A DNA stretch of 37,198 nucleotides from a virus (Duplodnaviria > Caudoviricetes): IMG/VR virus record IMGVR_UViG_3300025103_000066, positions 1 to 37,198 of that record. The stretch is one strand, 5' to 3'. Numbering within the stretch: position 1 is the stretch's first letter; each line of letters starts with the position of its first letter. Positions 159 through 36,220 of the stretch are shown in pieces. The position numbers and the translations under genes are program-made. The notes under the pieces were generated by a model. It was not told the origin of the DNA. It saw nothing but the letters and a program-made list of their open reading frames with translations, and did no database searches.

Positions 159-848
159 ATGTATAAAAGAAAAGAAATAATAGGTGATTGTGTTTTGTAC
201 CTTGGTGATTGTACTGAGATAGTTGACGGCTTGTCTTTTGACTCGATAGTATCAGACCCTCCTTTTGGAATGAATTTTCAATCAAACTATAGAAAAGCTG
301 ACACAACGCACAAAGTTATAGCTAATGATGCAGATGTAAAACTACTACAATGGGTAACTAACCTACAGGCAGAGCATAGCAAGTATATATTTTGCAGATG
401 GGATAACCTAGAGGATGTTAAAAAGCCTAAATCTGTTGTTACGTGGATAAAAGACAATCACTCTATGGGTGATTTGAAGCACGAACATGGAAGGCAGACG
501 GAGTTATGCTTATTCTACGCTGGTGATGACCATTATTTCCCCAGTAAGCGTCCTAATGACGTTTTGAAGTGCGCTATAAGCGGAAACAATCTACACCCTA
601 CTGAAAAGCCAGTACCTTTGATGCAAGAGATAATTAAATGGACAACGGGAGTTGTATTAGACCCTTTCATGGGAAGCGGAACAACCCTAGTAGCCTGCGC
701 AAAGATGGGGCGTAAAGGCATAGGTATTGAGCTAGACAAAAATTATTTTGATATAGCTATAAAGCGTGTTGAAGAGGCTTATAAAAGCCCTGACATGTTT
801 GTTGAGGCTGAAAAAAAAGAAGTAACACAAAGCAAAATGGAGTTGTAA
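159..848 (+). CDS. Orphan N4-C/N6-A DNA methyltransferase (beta class)
   Basis: DPPF catalytic motif, HPTEKP, DPFMGSGTT SAM-binding motif, GIELD. Confidence 0.92.
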   Translation: MYKRKEIIGDCVLYLGDCTEIVDGLSFDSIVSDPPFGMNFQSNYRKADTTHKVIANDADVKLLQWVTNLQAEHSKYIFCRWDNLEDVKKPKSVVTWIKDNHSMGDLKHEHGRQTELCLFYAGDDHYFPSKRPNDVLKCAISGNNLHPTEKPVPLMQEIIKWTTGVVLDPFMGSGTTLVACAKMGRKGIGIELDKNYFDIAIKRVEEAYKSPDMFVEAEKKEVTQSKMEL

Positions 849-3413: not shown

Positions 3414-3441
3414 TTTAAAAATAACTAGGAGAGTGTAGCAA

Positions 3442-3771
3442 GTGGTAAGTAGATCAACACAAAAAGATAAAGATTTTGGCGTTCAAGTAAAAGAAGTAAG
3501 AACAGAACACAAAAAAAGTAGAAGGGAAGTTGCAGAAAGATTAGGGCTTTCACAGCAGCAGCTGGAAAAGTATGAAAACGGTGATAACCGTATTGCAGCT
3601 GGTAAGCTTGTTGAAATTGCTGAAGCACTTGATGTTGACTTTATAGAACTGGTGCCTAAAAACCTTCTGGAAGTTGATAATATAGATAACCTAGCAATCT
3701 ATTTGTGGAAAAAGTTAAGTATTACAAATAAGAAGGCTGTTATAAATGTAATGCGTGAAATGAAAAATTAA
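3442..3771 (+). CDS. XRE-family HTH transcriptional regulator
   Basis: VAERLGLSQQQLEKYENGDNRIAAGKL HTH; GTG start after AGGAGA. Confidence 0.9.
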   Translation: MVSRSTQKDKDFGVQVKEVRTEHKKSRREVAERLGLSQQQLEKYENGDNRIAAGKLVEIAEALDVDFIELVPKNLLEVDNIDNLAIYLWKKLSITNKKAVINVMREMKN

Positions 3772-4151: not shown

Positions 4152-4190
4152 TAAACCATAATTTAATTTAAAAACTAGGAGAATTTAAAA

Positions 4191-4346
4191 ATGGGATTAA
4201 TAGAAGCAATAGTAGTAGTTGGTTTAACTTTTGGAACTATAACAGCAGGGCAATGTGCAGCTGAAGGTGTAGATCCAGATAAGTGTTTTACCAAGGAAAA
4301 TATCACTGTGGAACATGTTTATCCAAACAGCCACGGCAACAAATAA
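4191..4346 (+). CDS. Small membrane/exported peptide, 51 aa, pilin-like N-terminus (not in ORF track)
   Basis: MGLIEAIVVVGLTFGTITAGQCAAEGVDPDKCFTKENITVEHVYPNSHGNK; strong AGGAGA RBS. Confidence 0.65.
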   Translation: MGLIEAIVVVGLTFGTITAGQCAAEGVDPDKCFTKENITVEHVYPNSHGNK

Positions 4347-20148: not shown

Positions 20149-20631
20149 CTAAACTTCCTTGATATAACCAAGTTTTTTAAATTCAGCAATCTTAGTTTCA
20201 GGGCAAACTGAATGCTTAGGATAAAACAAACCGTTTCTTTTTAAGTTGCCTTTAAGAACCCAGCATTTAACTCTCATTGAAAAAGCTTTTTGAGCGGCTT
20301 CATATTCAGCTTTCGCTTTTTCCACAGCCTCTTTCTTTTCATCACGCTCTTCTACAGGATTAGGTGTTTCTTCAGGCTCAGCATCAGATTCTTCTGCCTC
20401 TTCTGCTCCCTCAGGCTCATCTTCACCTTCCGCCCCTTCAGTTGCATCTGGTGTTTCTTTAGGCGCATTTTCTAGAGCAGCAGCTGCTGCTTCTTTCTCT
20501 AGTTCAGCAAGCTCTTCAGCTTCCATTCTGGCAAGCTCTTCAGCTTCTTCTTTTTCCAGTGCGGCTTTTTCTTCTGCCTCTTGCTTTAGTCTTTTTTCTT
20601 CAGCTTTTTCTTGTGCAGTTTTTTTAGTCAT
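20149..20631 (-). CDS. Acidic low-complexity protein following the capsid gene
   Basis: Glu/Ala-rich N-terminus with a small globular C-terminal domain (..KLGYI). Confidence 0.7.
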   Translation of the reverse strand: MTKKTAQEKAEEKRLKQEAEEKAALEKEEAEELARMEAEELAELEKEAAAAALENAPKETPDATEGAEGEDEPEGAEEAEESDAEPEETPNPVEERDEKKEAVEKAKAEYEAAQKAFSMRVKCWVLKGNLKRNGLFYPKHSVCPETKIAEFKKLGYIKEV

Positions 20632-20662
20632 ATCAATTACCTAGTTTTTAATTGTGAGATAA

Positions 20663-29001: not shown

Positions 29002-29610
29002 TTAATTAATCCAATATTGTTGATGTTCTAGTTTTTCTTGTTTTACAGCAGATTCTAGTTCTAACCGTTCATCAGGTTCACCAGATACAGCCACTTTCAA
29101 AAAATCTTCGCAATACTGGTTTTCTTCATTTGTCGTAAAAACATTTTCACGCTTTTTGCGTTTTATTTCCAAAAAAGTTACTTTACACCACTTCTTTTTT
29201 TCTTTTGGCGGTTCAATAATATAAACTATATCAGCTGGCTTTGGCATAACTGAATTAGTTTTTAAATAAATCTTAAAAGCTGATTCAATCTGCTGCATTG
29301 TGAAATCTGATAAAACCATTGCAAATAGTTTGCTTGCGTTTTCTAATTGTTCCGGCTCTTTTCCAAATGTATCAAGCGTATCATAGCAAATTAAAAGTAA
29401 CGCTGATAATTTACTATGCCAGTCCGAGGGCTTTTTTTGCTCGCTGGTGGTTGCTTTCATGTTTTGGGGCGGATTGCTCGTAGATGGTATAATCATCATC
29501 CCAGCCTCGGTTGTTAAGCCATGTGCTTGCATGTTTGATAAATCGTTGCTCTTGTCCAATTGCTTTACAGTAGTTTTGGTATTTTCTAACACCGTTGATA
29601 ATGGTTTCAT
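29002..29610 (-). CDS. Putative helicase loader/inhibitor (lambda P or G39P-like); probable start 29460
   Basis: Directly follows the initiator; LSDFTMQQIESAF..YL....MPKPADI pattern. Confidence 0.6.
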   Translation of the reverse strand: MKPLSTVLENTKTTVKQLDKSNDLSNMQAHGLTTEAGMMIIPSTSNPPQNMKATTSEQKKPSDWHSKLSALLLICYDTLDTFGKEPEQLENASKLFAMVLSDFTMQQIESAFKIYLKTNSVMPKPADIVYIIEPPKEKKKWCKVTFLEIKRKKRENVFTTNEENQYCEDFLKVAVSGEPDERLELESAVKQEKLEHQQYWIN

Positions 29611-30136
29611 AGTTCACCCCTAGTTTTAAAGTTTTCTTAAATGATTTTATAGCCTGTTGTTTATTTCCTATTTTTCCGTAGAAATTCCAAAATTCATCAA
29701 AATCACTTATTTTATTATCATTGTTTTCATTGTTATTATTGTTTTCATTATTAGTAGTTGTTATCTGTTTGTTATCTGTTTGTTGCTCGCTTGTTACTTG
29801 TTTGTTATCTTGCTTGTTAATACCTTGATATAAATCATAGTTAACTACTGTAATTAAACGGCTTTTGTTTGATGCTTTGCTTGTTAACTCATTAGTAGAT
29901 TCTAACTTGTTAATTGCAGTGCGTATTTTCATCACACTTAAACCAGTATCTTTTGAAAGGCTATCAAGGGATGTGATGAATTGTCCCCTCCCTATATCAA
30001 TTCCACGCCACTTTTTATGTATGTGGTTTGCTTTTAATAAGCAATATGTGAATAAATGACAGGTGTTAATATCAGTGTACCATTCCCAATCTAGGAACTT
30101 TCTGTGCAAACTAATCCAGCCTTGACAATCAGTCAT
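29414..30136 (-). CDS. Phage replication initiator (replisome organiser, lambda O-like role)
   Basis: GWISLHRKFLDWEWY, RGQFITS...TGLS wHTH; FDEFWNFY, KHASTWLN C-terminal domain; internal iterons. Confidence 0.9.
   Translation of the reverse strand: MTDCQGWISLHRKFLDWEWYTDINTCHLFTYCLLKANHIHKKWRGIDIGRGQFITSLDSLSKDTGLSVMKIRTAINKLESTNELTSKASNKSRLITVVNYDLYQGINKQDNKQVTSEQQTDNKQITTTNNENNNNNENNDNKISDFDEFWNFYGKIGNKQQAIKSFKKTLKLGVNYETIINGVRKYQNYCKAIGQEQRFIKHASTWLNNRGWDDDYTIYEQSAPKHESNHQRAKKALGLA
29701..29820. repeat. Putative replication origin: six ~11-bp iterons plus an AT-rich tract
   Basis: TTGTT-starting units at 29758, 29769, 29780, 29791, 29802 and 29814 (consensus TTGTTATCTGT) next to AT-rich 29701-29757. 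Confidence 0.75.
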
Positions 30137-30140
30137 AATG

Positions 30141-30359
30141 CTAAACCCCCCAGCTTTTTAAAACCCTTTCAATATTGTTCATCATTTTAATCCGAGGTGA
30201 ATTTATATGAAAATTCAGGATTTGCGATAAATGCCCCTCCGAAGTGCCTACTTCGTTTGCAAGGTCTATTTGCCGTTTTCCTGCACGTCTAATGCGAACT
30301 GGTATTTGCTCAATTGCAGATTTTAGAACTAGATTTGATTCTATATTATTTTTACTCAT
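30141..30359 (-). CDS. Cro-like HTH regulator
   Basis: 72 aa; QIDLANEVGTSEGHLSQIL...PR HTH; first gene of the - strand block. Confidence 0.8.
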   Translation of the reverse strand: MSKNNIESNLVLKSAIEQIPVRIRRAGKRQIDLANEVGTSEGHLSQILNFHINSPRIKMMNNIERVLKSWGV

Positions 30360-30392
30360 TGTTTTACGTCCTGTTGAGTTTTGATATAGTCG

Positions 30393-30421
30393 ATATTAAA
30401 CAAAAGAAATTTAAAAAGCAA
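30393..30421 (-). promoter_or_regulatory. Sigma70 promoter for the cro/replication operon
   Basis: TTGCTT (30421-30416), 17-bp spacer, TAATAT (30398-30393). Confidence 0.65.
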
Positions 30422-30499
30422 TAAATAAATTGTTCAGGGTGTGCAACTAGGAGAAACACACCCCTACTAACCATATGAAGGACGAGTTCATAAATACGC
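30422..30499 (-). ncRNA. Candidate two-hairpin sRNA with anti-RBS loops
   Basis: Hairpins at 30437-30463 and 30474-30492; - strand loops UUUCUCCUAGUUG and CUCGUCC; own promoter upstream and U-rich 3' end. Confidence 0.55.
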
Positions 30500-30505
30500 T
30501 TAAAG

Positions 30506-30534
30506 ATATTATATTAATAAATCACTTTTTACAA
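30506..30534 (-). promoter_or_regulatory. Putative sigma70 promoter for the candidate sRNA
   Basis: TTGTAA (30534-30529), 17-bp spacer, TAATAT (30511-30506). Confidence 0.55.
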
Positions 30535-30540
30535 CCTTTG

Positions 30541-30606
30541 AAAATAAATCGAAATAAATTTTGATTTAAGTGTTGACTATAGTTTTAATTTCAACTATAA
30601 ATAGGT
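30541..30606 (+). promoter_or_regulatory. Early promoter P1 with overlapping palindromic operator
   Basis: TTGACT (30573-30578), 17-bp spacer, TATAAA (30596-30601); GTTGA-N14-TCAAC; near-duplicate at 34327-34392. Confidence 0.8.
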
Positions 30607-30641
30607 CAGACGTTAAACATAAAAAACTAGGAAAATTTATT

Positions 30642-30836
30642 ATGAATAATATAGAAATTATAAAAGAAATTGGATTTGCATTAAACCAAGAGGCTTTGGA
30701 GTTGCTAGAAAACAACGACACATTAGCCGTTGCATCTTGGAATGATGATATACAGGAAGCTAAAGAACAGGAATCTAGTTTAGAGATATCTAGCCATTGC
30801 TCTAAAACTGGCAATCCAATTTTAGTAAAACTTTAA
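30642..30836 (+). CDS. Hypothetical protein (start moved to ATG 30642)
   Basis: AACTAGGA RBS at 30625-30632; the longer track ORF would overlap the promoter. Confidence 0.7.
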   Translation: MNNIEIIKEIGFALNQEALELLENNDTLAVASWNDDIQEAKEQESSLEISSHCSKTGNPILVKL

Positions 30837-30854
30837 AACTAGGAGAGTTTAAAA

Positions 30855-31022
30855 ATGTCAAATCCAATAAAAATATTACTAACCGATTCCGACACTTCCG
30901 AGGTTGTTGAAATCTTAGAGGAAAAAGCAAGGGCTTACGTTAGGGAAAAAAATAACGTTAAAGCTTGCGAAATTATGGGAATCGCAAAACATATTGAATC
31001 ACAACAAAACAATCAAAATTAG
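30855..31022 (+). CDS. Small 55-aa protein (not in ORF track)
   Basis: MSNPIKILLTDSDTSEVVEILEEKARAY...; AACTAGGAGA RBS. Confidence 0.7.
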   Translation: MSNPIKILLTDSDTSEVVEILEEKARAYVREKNNVKACEIMGIAKHIESQQNNQN

Positions 31023-33152: not shown

Positions 33153-33180
33153 ACAATCACATAATAAAGGACGTGAAAAA

Positions 33181-34323
33181 ATGTGTAATTTTACTCAAGA
33201 CGAAAAGCCCACCACCAAAAAACCAAAAGCTGATATGCCATATGCAGAAGGTATTTATTTTGATATGCCTGAAGATGAATATCATAAGATTCCTTATTTC
33301 AGCCGATCAGGGGCAGATGAAATATTATTTAGTGCTGAACAGTTTTGGGAAAACTCACCTATGAACCCTGACCGCAAAGAAAAAGAAACAAATGATGCAA
33401 TGGATTTAGGAAGTGCAATACACTGCATGTTGCTTGAACCTGAACGATTTAAGAGCCTATATGCTAAATATCCTACAGTGAGTGATTATAAGGGGAAAAA
33501 TATATTAAAAACCTCTGAAGACTTGAAAACCTTTCTGGATCTTGTTGGTCAAAAGAAAACCGGCAAAAAGCAAGATTTAATCAATAGGGCAGTGGAATAT
33601 TTAGATCCTAGAATTGATGTTATTTGGGATAATGAAATAAAAACATTTCTTGAAGAAGTGGCTGAAAGTGGCAAGCGTATCTTATCAGACGATCATACAG
33701 AAATATTAACTGGTATTGAAGATGCTATAAAGCGTAGAAAGAAAATGCCGGAGATATTAGAAAACACACGTTCAGAAGTTGTTATAATATGGAAAGATGA
33801 AGAAACTGGTATTATGTGCAAATGTATGATTGATGCAGTACGACCTGAAGCAATAGGTGAAGTAAAATCTTTTTCAGTAAAAAATTACAATATACCACTA
33901 GAAGAAACTATGCTTAATGATATTAGGTACCGTAAATATAACCATCAGTTTTATGTTTATAGTGAAGCATTAAAAACCATTATAAAGAAAATCAATACCG
34001 GCAAGGCTGAAGTTTTTGGTGACGTTGATGAAAGTTGGTTAAAAGAATTTCTTAAAACACCAAATAAACAGTTTTTTATAATGTTCTTCAGAACACAGGC
34101 ACCTTATCAATGTAAATCTTATGAACTAGAAAGATCTGTTATGCCTGATGCAACAGCAAATACATATTATGAAATGGGGCAAATGATGTGGAAAGCTGCA
34201 ATCAAAAAGCTACAAGATCATTATACAAGGTTTGGAACGTCACGTTGGGTTGATGAAGATGAAGTTGTGACACTTACAGATGAACATATTCCGTCAATTG
34301 TGTATCAATCAACAGGCTTTTAA
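33181..34323 (+). CDS. PD-(D/E)XK exonuclease (RecE/exonuclease VIII, DUF3799-like)
   Basis: GIYFDMPEDEYH...SRSG...AMDLGSAIHCMLLEPERF...SEV..W.DEETG..CKCMID...EVKS...Y..Q..Y. Confidence 0.88.
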   Translation: MCNFTQDEKPTTKKPKADMPYAEGIYFDMPEDEYHKIPYFSRSGADEILFSAEQFWENSPMNPDRKEKETNDAMDLGSAIHCMLLEPERFKSLYAKYPTVSDYKGKNILKTSEDLKTFLDLVGQKKTGKKQDLINRAVEYLDPRIDVIWDNEIKTFLEEVAESGKRILSDDHTEILTGIEDAIKRRKKMPEILENTRSEVVIIWKDEETGIMCKCMIDAVRPEAIGEVKSFSVKNYNIPLEETMLNDIRYRKYNHQFYVYSEALKTIIKKINTGKAEVFGDVDESWLKEFLKTPNKQFFIMFFRTQAPYQCKSYELERSVMPDATANTYYEMGQMMWKAAIKKLQDHYTRFGTSRWVDEDEVVTLTDEHIPSIVYQSTGF

Positions 34324-34326
34324 CAC

Positions 34327-34392
34327 AAAATAAATCTAAAATTCTTTTGATTTTATGGTTGACTATGTTTTTATTTTCAACTATAAATAGGT
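34327..34392 (+). promoter_or_regulatory. Early promoter P2, duplicate of P1
   Basis: TTGACT (34359-34364), 17-bp spacer, TATAAA (34382-34387); GTTGA-N14-TCAAC. Confidence 0.8.
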
Positions 34393-34418
34393 AAAGCAAT
34401 AATGAAGGACGGTTTTAT

Positions 34419-34697: not shown

Positions 34698-35120
34698 ATG
34701 AGCGTTCATTTTTCAAGTGAAACAGATTTGTGGAGTACACCACAAGAAACTTTTGATAACTTAAATAAGGTTTTTAATTTTAAACTAGATCCTTGTGCAA
34801 CCGTTGAAAATGCGAAGTGTGAAAATTTCTTCACGAAAGAAGATGATGGACTTTCTAAAGATTGGGCAGCTTATGGAAATGTTTTTATGAATCCGCCATA
34901 TGGACGTGAAATAGGCAAATGGGTTCACAAGGCTTATACATCAGGTGCGTGTGTTGTGTGCCTACTGCCAGCTAGGACTGACACAAAGTGGTGGAATGAC
35001 AATTGCAATAATGCTGATGTAATAAAGTTCATTAAAGGGCGTTTAAGGTTTGGAGATTCCAAGAATTCCGCACCTTTCCCATCAGCAATAGTAATATTTA
35101 ATTTATTTAACTCAAACTAG
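34698..35120 (+). CDS. Phage N6-adenine DNA methyltransferase (phage Dam-like family)
   Basis: WSTPQ, LDPCA, DDGL, MNPPY, LLPARTDT, GRLRF, APFPS motifs. Confidence 0.92.
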   Translation: MSVHFSSETDLWSTPQETFDNLNKVFNFKLDPCATVENAKCENFFTKEDDGLSKDWAAYGNVFMNPPYGREIGKWVHKAYTSGACVVCLLPARTDTKWWNDNCNNADVIKFIKGRLRFGDSKNSAPFPSAIVIFNLFNSN

Positions 35121-35131
35121 GAAAAACAAAA

Positions 35132-36220
35132 ATGACTAAAGAAAACCAAGAAGTAATTTTATACAAAGAAGAAGAAGCAACAGCTTTAAAACTTTATAGG
35201 AATGATGGGCTAGATCCTTTTATTGAAAATATCAGAAAGGTTGCAAAAGAATTTGAAGCTGATGTAACAACTGAAAAAGGAAGGAAGGCTTATAAGTCTT
35301 TAGCCTATAAAATCAGCCAAGCAAAAACAAAGGTTGAAGAAATCCGAAAATCTGAAAATGAAGAACATCAAGCAGCTATTACAGCTAATAATAAGAAAGG
35401 CAAAAAAGCCGTTGCAGATTTACAAGCTATTCAAGACGAAGTTAAGAAGCCTGTTACTGAATGGGAAAACCGCATCGCAGAACATCAGGCTTCAATAGCA
35501 AACATTGAAAAACTTGCTGCTGTGGCTGCTTATGAATGGGAATCAATGCCTGTTGATCAAATGCAAAAATTAGTTACTGATATAAGCAACGAAAAAAGGG
35601 AATGGCATGAATTTTCTTTTAAGGCTGAAAATGTAAAAAAACAAACTATAGAATCAATTGAAGCCACGATTGCTAAACGCAAAAAGCATGATGATGATAA
35701 GGCTGAACTTTTAAGGCTGCAAAAAGCTGAAGAAGAACGCAAACAAAAAGAACGTGATGAAGCCATTGCAAGGGAAGCTGAAGAACGTGCAAAAAAAGAA
35801 GCTGAAGAACGTGAATTAAAATTAAAACAAGAAAAAGAGCGTATAGAGAATGAAAAACTTGAAGCTGAAGCGAAGGCAAAAAGGGCTGAAACTGCTAGAA
35901 TTGCAGCAGAAGCACAAGCAAAAGAAGATGCAAAAGTTGCTGAAGCAAATAGAATTGCAGCAGAAAAACAGGCTGAAATTAACAAGCAAGAGGCGATTAA
36001 AGAAGCAGCAAGGGCTGAACGCTTACGAGTCGAGAAAGAAGCAAAGGCAAAAGCTGACGAATTAGCAAAACGCAAGGCAGATGAAGAACATAAGAAAAAA
36101 ATAATCTTAGAAGCTGAAAATGCCCTTGTGCATATAGAAGGCTTTTCACAAAGATTATCTTCATCAGTGATAAGAGCAATCATTGAAGGTAAAATTCCAC
36201 ACGTAACTTTTAATTATTAG
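35132..36220 (+). CDS. Conserved phage long coiled-coil protein (often mislabelled TolA-like)
   Basis: DVTTEKGRKAYKSLAYKISQAK N-terminus, E/K/A/R-rich helix, terminal GKIPHVTFNY. Confidence 0.8.
   Translation: MTKENQEVILYKEEEATALKLYRNDGLDPFIENIRKVAKEFEADVTTEKGRKAYKSLAYKISQAKTKVEEIRKSENEEHQAAITANNKKGKKAVADLQAIQDEVKKPVTEWENRIAEHQASIANIEKLAAVAAYEWESMPVDQMQKLVTDISNEKREWHEFSFKAENVKKQTIESIEATIAKRKKHDDDKAELLRLQKAEEERKQKERDEAIAREAEERAKKEAEERELKLKQEKERIENEKLEAEAKAKRAETARIAAEAQAKEDAKVAEANRIAAEKQAEINKQEAIKEAARAERLRVEKEAKAKADELAKRKADEEHKKKIILEAENALVHIEGFSQRLSSSVIRAIIEGKIPHVTFNY

Follow-up and report, generated by a model that had tools for sequence, protein, structure and literature searches.

Genome organisation and host

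The window, that is, the whole stretch of DNA analysed (37,198 nt), comprises an entire 37.2-kb virus record with a 126-nt terminal repeat. Early genes occupy the plus strand and are driven by two similar promoters, P1 and P2; the minus strand encodes a 72-aa cro-like protein, the replication genes and the virion genes. The landmarks of the control region are as follows.

30141..30359, minus strand: cro-like helix-turn-helix (HTH) gene, 72 aa, downstream of the predicted RNA described below
30573..30601, plus strand: early promoter P1, TTGACT-17-TATAAA, 83% identical to P2 over 66 nt
34359..34387, plus strand: early promoter P2, similar to P1

The cro label reflects a weak HTH_3 match only (E 0.0075, below the cut-off). 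The P1 and P2 regions (30541-30606 and 34327-34392) have in common AAAATAAATC upstream, with AATAAATCGAAATAAAT kept in a related lineage (L004) too, and an inverted repeat overlapping the -10 (TATAGTT...AACTATA in P1); these may serve as operators bound by the cro-like protein or the XRE protein. Tandem GTTTGTT/GTTATC repeats at 29700-29830, within the replication initiator gene (29414-30136), are candidate iterons or an origin.

Tyrosine integrase (PF00589), S24 peptidase (PF00717) and resolvase (PF00239) were absent from five of five near-complete records, the controls being positive, and no antirepressor was found among the 44 window proteins scanned in PHROGs (top five families each). No bacterial genome was found to encode a close relative of the exonuclease. 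The named relatives of the XRE protein (3442-3771) are proteins of Alphaproteobacteria and Rickettsiales metagenome-assembled genomes and GapR is encoded by related phages, which together make a Rickettsiales-like host likely for the window phage.

A blastn search of cultured phages with the region returned only the replication gene of seven Vibrio phage records, and tblastn with TerL and the exonuclease gave only distant relatives (below 48% and about 31% identity). The window is represented in marine metagenome runs, with at least half of its words present in 12 of 20 rows among the matches listed; these come from eight studies, not counting two possible sources, all dating from 2017 and perhaps from one campaign. 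Among the matches listed none was an RNA run, and the four DNA runs examined, each holding a small share of the window, gave no coverage of the element described below.

A two-hairpin element upstream of the cro-like gene

Between P1 and the cro-like gene lies a structured element predicted to be read from the minus strand, for which the following features were assigned.

30393..30421, minus strand: separate predicted promoter of the cro-like gene, TTGCTT-17-TAATAT
30422..30501, minus strand: predicted small RNA of about 65-80 nt, with 5' domain B, hairpin A and an A/U-rich tail; ends predicted
30437..30464, minus strand: hairpin A, a GC-rich stem of 9 bp with the seed CCUAGU in its loop, complement of the ACUAGG tag (A-tag)
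30475..30485, minus strand: seed B, an invariant 11-mer with CGUCCUU, complement of the AAGGACG tag (B-tag)
30506..30534, minus strand: predicted promoter of the RNA, TTGTAA, with the -10 TATAAT at 30513-30508

Both hairpins of the first-pass annotation, A at 30437-30463 and B at 30474-30492, were confirmed at these coordinates. Its promoter (TTGTAA-17-TAATAT, 30534-30506) is present, but homologues place the -10 at TATAAT. Similarly, the letters of its 'loop B' match are correct but part of them sits in a stem in this genome; on folding, domain B forms a longer irregular stem with the seed exposed. The U-rich end that had been proposed corresponds to an A-rich and then U-rich tail after hairpin A, which recurs in all four lineages compared below, although no canonical intrinsic terminator was found after the element.

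No small ORF was detected over the element, all six window frames being broken or lacking a start with a ribosome binding site (RBS). Rfam gave no matches over the window at gathering thresholds, and the five sub-threshold matches obtained over 30300-30700 at E ≤ 10 were all unrelated. As the fold of the window sequence is itself unremarkable (z about -1.8) and Rfam holds nothing like it, the case rests on comparison.

Conservation among clade I lineages

Homologues were gathered with the cro-like protein and with a two-seed pattern, near-identical copies being left out of class statistics. The pattern yielded seven viral stretches, of which three lay in coding sequence and four were real: one identical to the window, the contig of L004, and the near-identical pair G001/G002. 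Metagenomes yielded 65 stretches, three of them real (L163, equivalent to G002; L180; and L202, equivalent to the window); the other 62 were dropped as lacking a hairpin, judged by eye. A stem-only pattern search was uninformative, returning about 2300 chance stretches. Four lineages, termed clade I, resulted: the window (L003, L202), L004 (G011), L134 (G001, with the near-identical G002) and L180. A covariance model, R1, matched the window at 30421-30504 with 91 bits, having been built from this element; over 151 genomes of the likely host order it gave one weak match (27.5 bits, domain A missing), which was taken as chance.

The element occurs in all four diverged lineages at one place, upstream of the cro-like gene, whose product is 67% identical to that of the window in L004 and 40% in L134. 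Invariant columns are concentrated in seed B (11/11) and loop A (10/13), compared with 1/26 in the upstream flank, 1/10 in the linker and 3/20 in the tail. The CUCCU core of loop A is altered in L004 and L180, CCUAGU being invariant. Every cell of stem A is paired, with two pairs showing compensatory change and five G·U cells. All seven one-sided changes in this stem, at six pair positions, read as G·U pairs in a minus-strand RNA and as A·C in a plus-strand one; a pair-shuffle control for the stem was not significant with four sequences (62/500). The minus strand folds better in each lineage (z -1.8, -4.5, -2.4 and -5.2, against -0.9, -2.1, -1.5 and -1.6 for the plus strand), and both seeds are predicted to be largely unpaired (P 0.75-1.00; CGUCCU 0.78-1.00 in 4/4 lineages).

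In a consensus scan, exactly 22 nt separated the best minus-strand -10 from seed B in all four clade I lineages, and this was the spacing in six of seven lineages overall when the more distant clade II described below is included (2/3); opposite-strand -10 candidates scatter over 17-81 nt. The promoter of the cro-like gene, TTGC..-17-TA...T, is likewise present in 4/4 lineages as read by eye in the alignment. Within its spacer (window 30400-30410), TTTCTTT(T/C)G is kept in all four and is a possible operator. The element is real and conserved, and it is probably transcribed as an antisense RNA.

Tagged ribosome binding sites

Complements of the two seeds lie in the RBSs of the following genes of the window.

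30625..30632, plus strand: A-tag, RBS of the first early gene (ATG 30642)
30837..30846, plus strand: A-tag, gene 30855-31022
35115..35128, plus strand: A-tag, phrog_1376 gene 35132-36220; kept in G001
3423..3432, plus strand: A-tag, XRE gene 3442-3771
4173..4183, plus strand: A-tag, 51-aa gene 4191-4346; kept in G001
29619..29625, minus strand: A-tag, replication-associated gene 29002-29610; duplex -15.3 kcal/mol
20640..20646, minus strand: A-tag, late gene 20149-20631 beside the capsid gene; orthologues in G001 and L207 likewise tagged
33167..33173, plus strand: B-tag, exonuclease VIII gene 33181-34323; G001 and L180 orthologues likewise tagged
34402..34411, plus strand: B-tag, first gene after P2 (34419-34688); -19.2 kcal/mol; kept in G001 and L180
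1240..1250, plus strand: B-tag variant with one G·U, ERF gene 1257-2000; -16.8 kcal/mol
30367-30372, minus strand: B-tag, RBS of the cro-like gene; GGACG in the RBS of 4/4 orthologues

The eight RBS matches first proposed all hold, including the 13 of 14 positions at 35115 and the C/U wobble at erf, but that list had missed the cro-like gene, the replication gene 29002-29610 and the late gene 20149-20631. The label 'pilin-like' given to the 51-aa gene product was not borne out by any Pfam, PHROG or NCBIfam match at the cut-offs used. Many seed-tag pairings extend over only 6-8 nt, and duplexes are weak at cro (-9.1 kcal/mol), the exonuclease (-10.6 kcal/mol) and the late gene (-9.2 kcal/mol); the cro site of G001 has only five contiguous pairs with the seed. 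The B-tag persists where the gene at the annealing-protein position differs, this being ERF in the window and AAA_24 in G001. Upstream of the A-tag in the P1 leader (window 30608-30614) lies AGACGT (GGACGT in L004, AGACGT in L180), a possible second, B-type site on one mRNA. Two DNA methyltransferase genes of the early operon (N6_N4_Mtase and Dam; window 159-848 and 34698-35120) carry neither tag.

Gene starts and early or late classes were assigned with a simple gene caller of our own and hand-set boundaries. With the four lineages pooled, AGGACG was found in 13 of 67 early and cro leaders and in none of 95 middle and late leaders, ranking first of 397 hexamers. CTAGGA ranked second (10 against 0) and ACTAGG was found in 11/67 and 4/95 leaders respectively, although pooled Fisher values overstate independence because the lineages share ancestry. 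AGGA was followed by CG in 13 early and cro leaders against none elsewhere, and by TG in one of each. A start-proximity hexamer test, which uses no RBS information, ranked ACTAGG first and AGGACG eighth of 3815 hexamers in the window; AGGACG ranked second of 3985 in G001, fourth in G002 and third in L180, and ACTAGG did not reach significance in L180 and L135, both short stretches (1/7 and 1/6). Among six exonuclease-related phages without this RNA, from which the distant phage L240 was left out, the two tags were start-proximal in 1/25 and 1/36 occurrences.

Loop matches exceeded shuffled controls at 7 and 8 nt. Exact 7-mers of the window loop segments matched 9 of 63 gene leaders, a number reached by 34/3000 shuffles (9/3000 for early and cro leaders only), and 8-mers matched six leaders (9/3000; early and cro leaders 0/3000). 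The corresponding 7-nt values were 26/3000 in G001 and 12/3000 in L180; at 6 nt the overall excess was not significant (856, 268 and 201 of 3000 in the window, G001 and L180). A looser whole-element test gave a modest result, its 11 matches being reached by 146/6662 genome windows and 60/2000 shuffles (about 2-3%). Target differences around the tag cores showed no wobble bias. In L004 and L180 a change in loop A weakens its pairing with the AGGAG targets of these lineages, and untagged G-rich Shine-Dalgarno (SD) sequences of middle or late genes head the energy ranking in both.

Clade II and other relatives

Clade II consists of G008, G009 and L239, with exonucleases 44-47% identical, and orthology was established for the cro, post-exonuclease, phrog_1376 and XRE genes. 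G008 and G009 each have a single copy of AAAACGGAAA at the corresponding place, in the gap between cro and the early promoter, and AAAAACGG precedes cro, the exonuclease and further early genes. The L239 element has AAACAGAAA instead and its tags are AAAAACAG(G), loop and tag being altered at the matching base. The predicted minus-strand promoter is TTGATT, with the -10 at 22, 22 and 23-26 nt. When loops and leaders were crossed, clade I loops matched 6-8 early and cro genes within their own clade against 0-2 in clade II, and G008/G009 loops matched 4-7 of their own genes and 0-1 of clade I. Loop and tag change together: the loop motif differs in clade II and orthologous genes carry the matching tag.

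Shuffle tests were less decisive for clade II. At 7 nt the observed numbers were reached by 352/3000 (G008), 553/3000 (G009) and 1792/3000 (L239) shuffles, and the one significant result was that at 8 nt with early genes (26/3000 and 44/3000); L239 gave none. The clade II element is an A-rich motif with a weak fold; its homology is unproven because R1 fails to detect it, and its likeness to the clade I element may be one of analogy. The late genes of G008, G009, G006 and G007 mostly have A/U-rich leaders without an SD, among which AAAAACGG stands out.

L240 (G167) carries a B-tag, AAAAAGGACG, before its exonuclease, with no R1 match and no element seen. Neither tag enrichment nor an element was seen in G005, G006, G007 and G010. 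A structured GC-rich stretch at 34900-34960 of G005 (L225), upstream of the orthologous cro-like gene, shows a UUCUAGU loop and UUUUUCUCC; a matching RBS tag was not found.

A candidate antisense regulator of early translation

We hold it to be quite likely that a minus-strand RNA of about 70 nt base-pairs in trans with the phage-private AAGGACG and ACUAGG tags and blocks translation of about ten genes, most of them early, including the cro-like gene. The first-pass proposal of a minus-strand, two-loop antisense RNA directed at early RBSs is backed, at the level of sequence comparison, by the G·U covariation, the promoter at fixed distance, the invariant seeds, the tag enrichment and the concerted change in clade II. 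The two exposed seeds would occlude the tagged SD sites, and pairing over the SD normally blocks 30S loading, an established mechanism of small RNAs. A sigma70-type promoter would fire at infection, alongside P1 and P2; as the RNA built up it would, after a delay, turn off genes of early recombination and regulation, cro among them, and it could also silence superinfecting kin. The canonical SD, AAGGAGG, differs from AAGGACG at one base, by which the RNA would be able to distinguish phage mRNAs bearing the tag from ordinary mRNAs.

The RNA had been put forward as a repressor in a phage lacking CI. CI is indeed absent, but so are integrase and resolvase; since none of the five near-complete genomes has any of the three, shut-off within the lytic cycle or kin exclusion would seem more likely than prophage maintenance.

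An alternative that we regard as unlikely is that the tags are sites for host CsrA/RsmA, or for a phage RegA/RegB-like protein, and the element a plus-strand decoy with the same motifs. Of 151 genomes in the Rickettsiales-like order of G012, 87 have a CsrA match (PF02599) above the cut-off, more than would be expected for Alphaproteobacteria, which overturned an assumption that the host group lacks this protein. Three ANGGA motifs are present on the plus strand of the G008 element, AAGGACG fits the A(N)GGAX motif as given in the accessible part of PMC4005645, and T4 RegB is described in part of PMC3014915 as inactivating early mRNAs at GGAG SDs. Nevertheless, all stem wobbles and the promoter spacing favour, if indirectly, the strand opposite the GGA sense, which weakens the sponge alternative raised in the first-pass annotation. 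The clade I element has two plus-strand GGA, one ANGGA and no ANGGAX hexaloop, unlike the CsrB/RsmXYZ sponges, for which 6-8 GGA motifs are given for RsmX/RsmZ in the accessible part of PMC4005645. Several A-tags (ACUAGGUA) lack GGA, as does the L239 element at the matching position, and the Csr motif leaves X free, yet the tags have C in 13 cases and U in one.

Somewhat less likely again is action in cis, the element being the 5' leader of the cro operon: seed B of a read-through transcript would fold back on the cro RBS, and the remaining tags would be of secondary importance or have no connection with it. Cro is tagged in all four clade I lineages and in G008/G009, no canonical terminator intervenes, and folding of the read-through transcripts predicts pairing of seed B with the cro tag in the window (P(unpaired) 0.01) and L180 (0.00), and in part in L004 (0.26). 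The fold is not favoured in L134 (0.45), cro has a conserved promoter of its own, and such a leader leaves loop A and the tagged early genes on the other strand (21/63) unexplained. As seed B lies on the cro RBS in the read-through folds of two lineages, cis action on cro may contribute to the mechanism, side by side with action in trans.

It is improbable that the tags simply represent SD variants that are strong or typical of the lineage, with the hairpins serving to terminate transcription or insulate the promoters from each other and the loop resembling an SD by chance. The SD core does lie within both tags, the whole-element test reaches only the level given above, and L240 has a B-tag with no element detected; against this, the loops and not the stems alone are invariant, AGGACG is absent from the 95 middle and late leaders, the tags are absent from related phages without the RNA, the promoter spacing is fixed, and loop and tag change together. 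Just as improbable is an antisense RNA with another main task, namely host mRNA shut-down via the CUCCU of loop A or aiding translation of tagged mRNAs, which fits the anti-SD core in loop A of the window and G001 and a sign of regulation as yet only predicted, but not the variation of that core in L004 and L180 beside an invariant CCUAGU, nor seeds that pair over the SD itself.

Comparison with known systems

The phage RNA repressors known to us act on one target region. C4 exposes two loops that pair with short sites, and C4-type RNAs are processed from a longer leader by RNase P. The favoured trans-acting RNA resembles the CI RNA of P4 and the C4 RNAs of P1 and P7 in being a small structured RNA that lies in the control region ahead of a gene it could target, in the same orientation as that gene, and in its short loop-exposed seeds, here predicted to be complementary to phage target sites. 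From the accessible parts of the sources, P1 C4 is an antisense RNA with an Rfam family, RF01695 (PMC2864571), and P4 CI RNA binds seqA (PMC10111431). Unlike C4, the present element has no Rfam covariance-model match and, unlike both, it is accompanied by no temperate immunity module, the three Pfam families named above being absent from 5/5 records. P4 CI acts on termination at a single site close by, within a temperate element, whereas about ten RBSs on both strands are tagged here, in phages without integrase or CI.

The tags themselves recall the start-associated sequence (SAS) known from Cluster K mycobacteriophages, an RBS tag that is private and asymmetric, occurs at many non-structural genes and is conserved beyond SD pairing; according to the accessible part of PMC3203893, four genomes have one extra copy, reverse-oriented and away from gene starts. 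The likeness is one of description: both are asymmetric tags a few nt before the starts of non-structural genes, conserved beyond the SD and rare in other phages. The present tags are two and 6-10 nt long rather than 13 bp, unrelated in sequence, and belong to phages of another host phylum. An RNA or protein ligand was suggested for SAS (PMC3203893), its function was later still given as 'not known' (PMC11373665), and no cognate RNA is described in the accessible parts of either source.

Shut-off of early mRNAs through motifs in the translation initiation region is a feature of the T4 RegB endoribonuclease and RegA repressor, on the accessible part of PMC3014915; these are proteins, whereas the candidate effector here is an RNA with complementary loops. 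Pairing phage RNAs that set developmental expression include sar of P22, OOP and aQ of lambda, VpdS of VP882 and PreS, which in the accessible part of a review (PMC12197685) are either cis-antisense to one gene or Hfq-bound and host-directed; that part mentions no phage small RNA targeting an RBS tag shared across the phage's own genes. Nor was a report of a phage small RNA aimed at a shared RBS tag found in the literature searched, mostly by listings. The readable supplements of the catalogue of Fremin et al. 2023 (PMC10690425) gave no match, and the catalogue may list the RNA as an anonymous candidate.

If true, phage timing would here have a new architecture, in which one RNA reads a private RBS code shared by the cro-like gene and the two early operons. 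The proposal makes testable a question open since 2011, the role of start-associated tags such as SAS, and the tag and seed pairs would be natural, orthogonal parts for translational control. A broader proposal, plausible though we stop short of favouring it, is that lytic phages build regulons free of protein repressors from private tags in early and cro-like RBSs and one RNA with complementary seeds, the two co-drifting (AAGGACG, AAAACGG, AAAACAG), with timing and the exclusion of kin becoming specific to each lineage. Such a design would be of general use among phages and would account for the start-associated sequences found in others.

A separate, unrelated element (…GGGAATATTCCACAAATCCTGAAGGACGTAAAG…) recurred in the pattern scan in L148, L177, L178, L186, L189 and L197. 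It looks like a conserved RNA motif and may resemble a c-di-GMP riboswitch.
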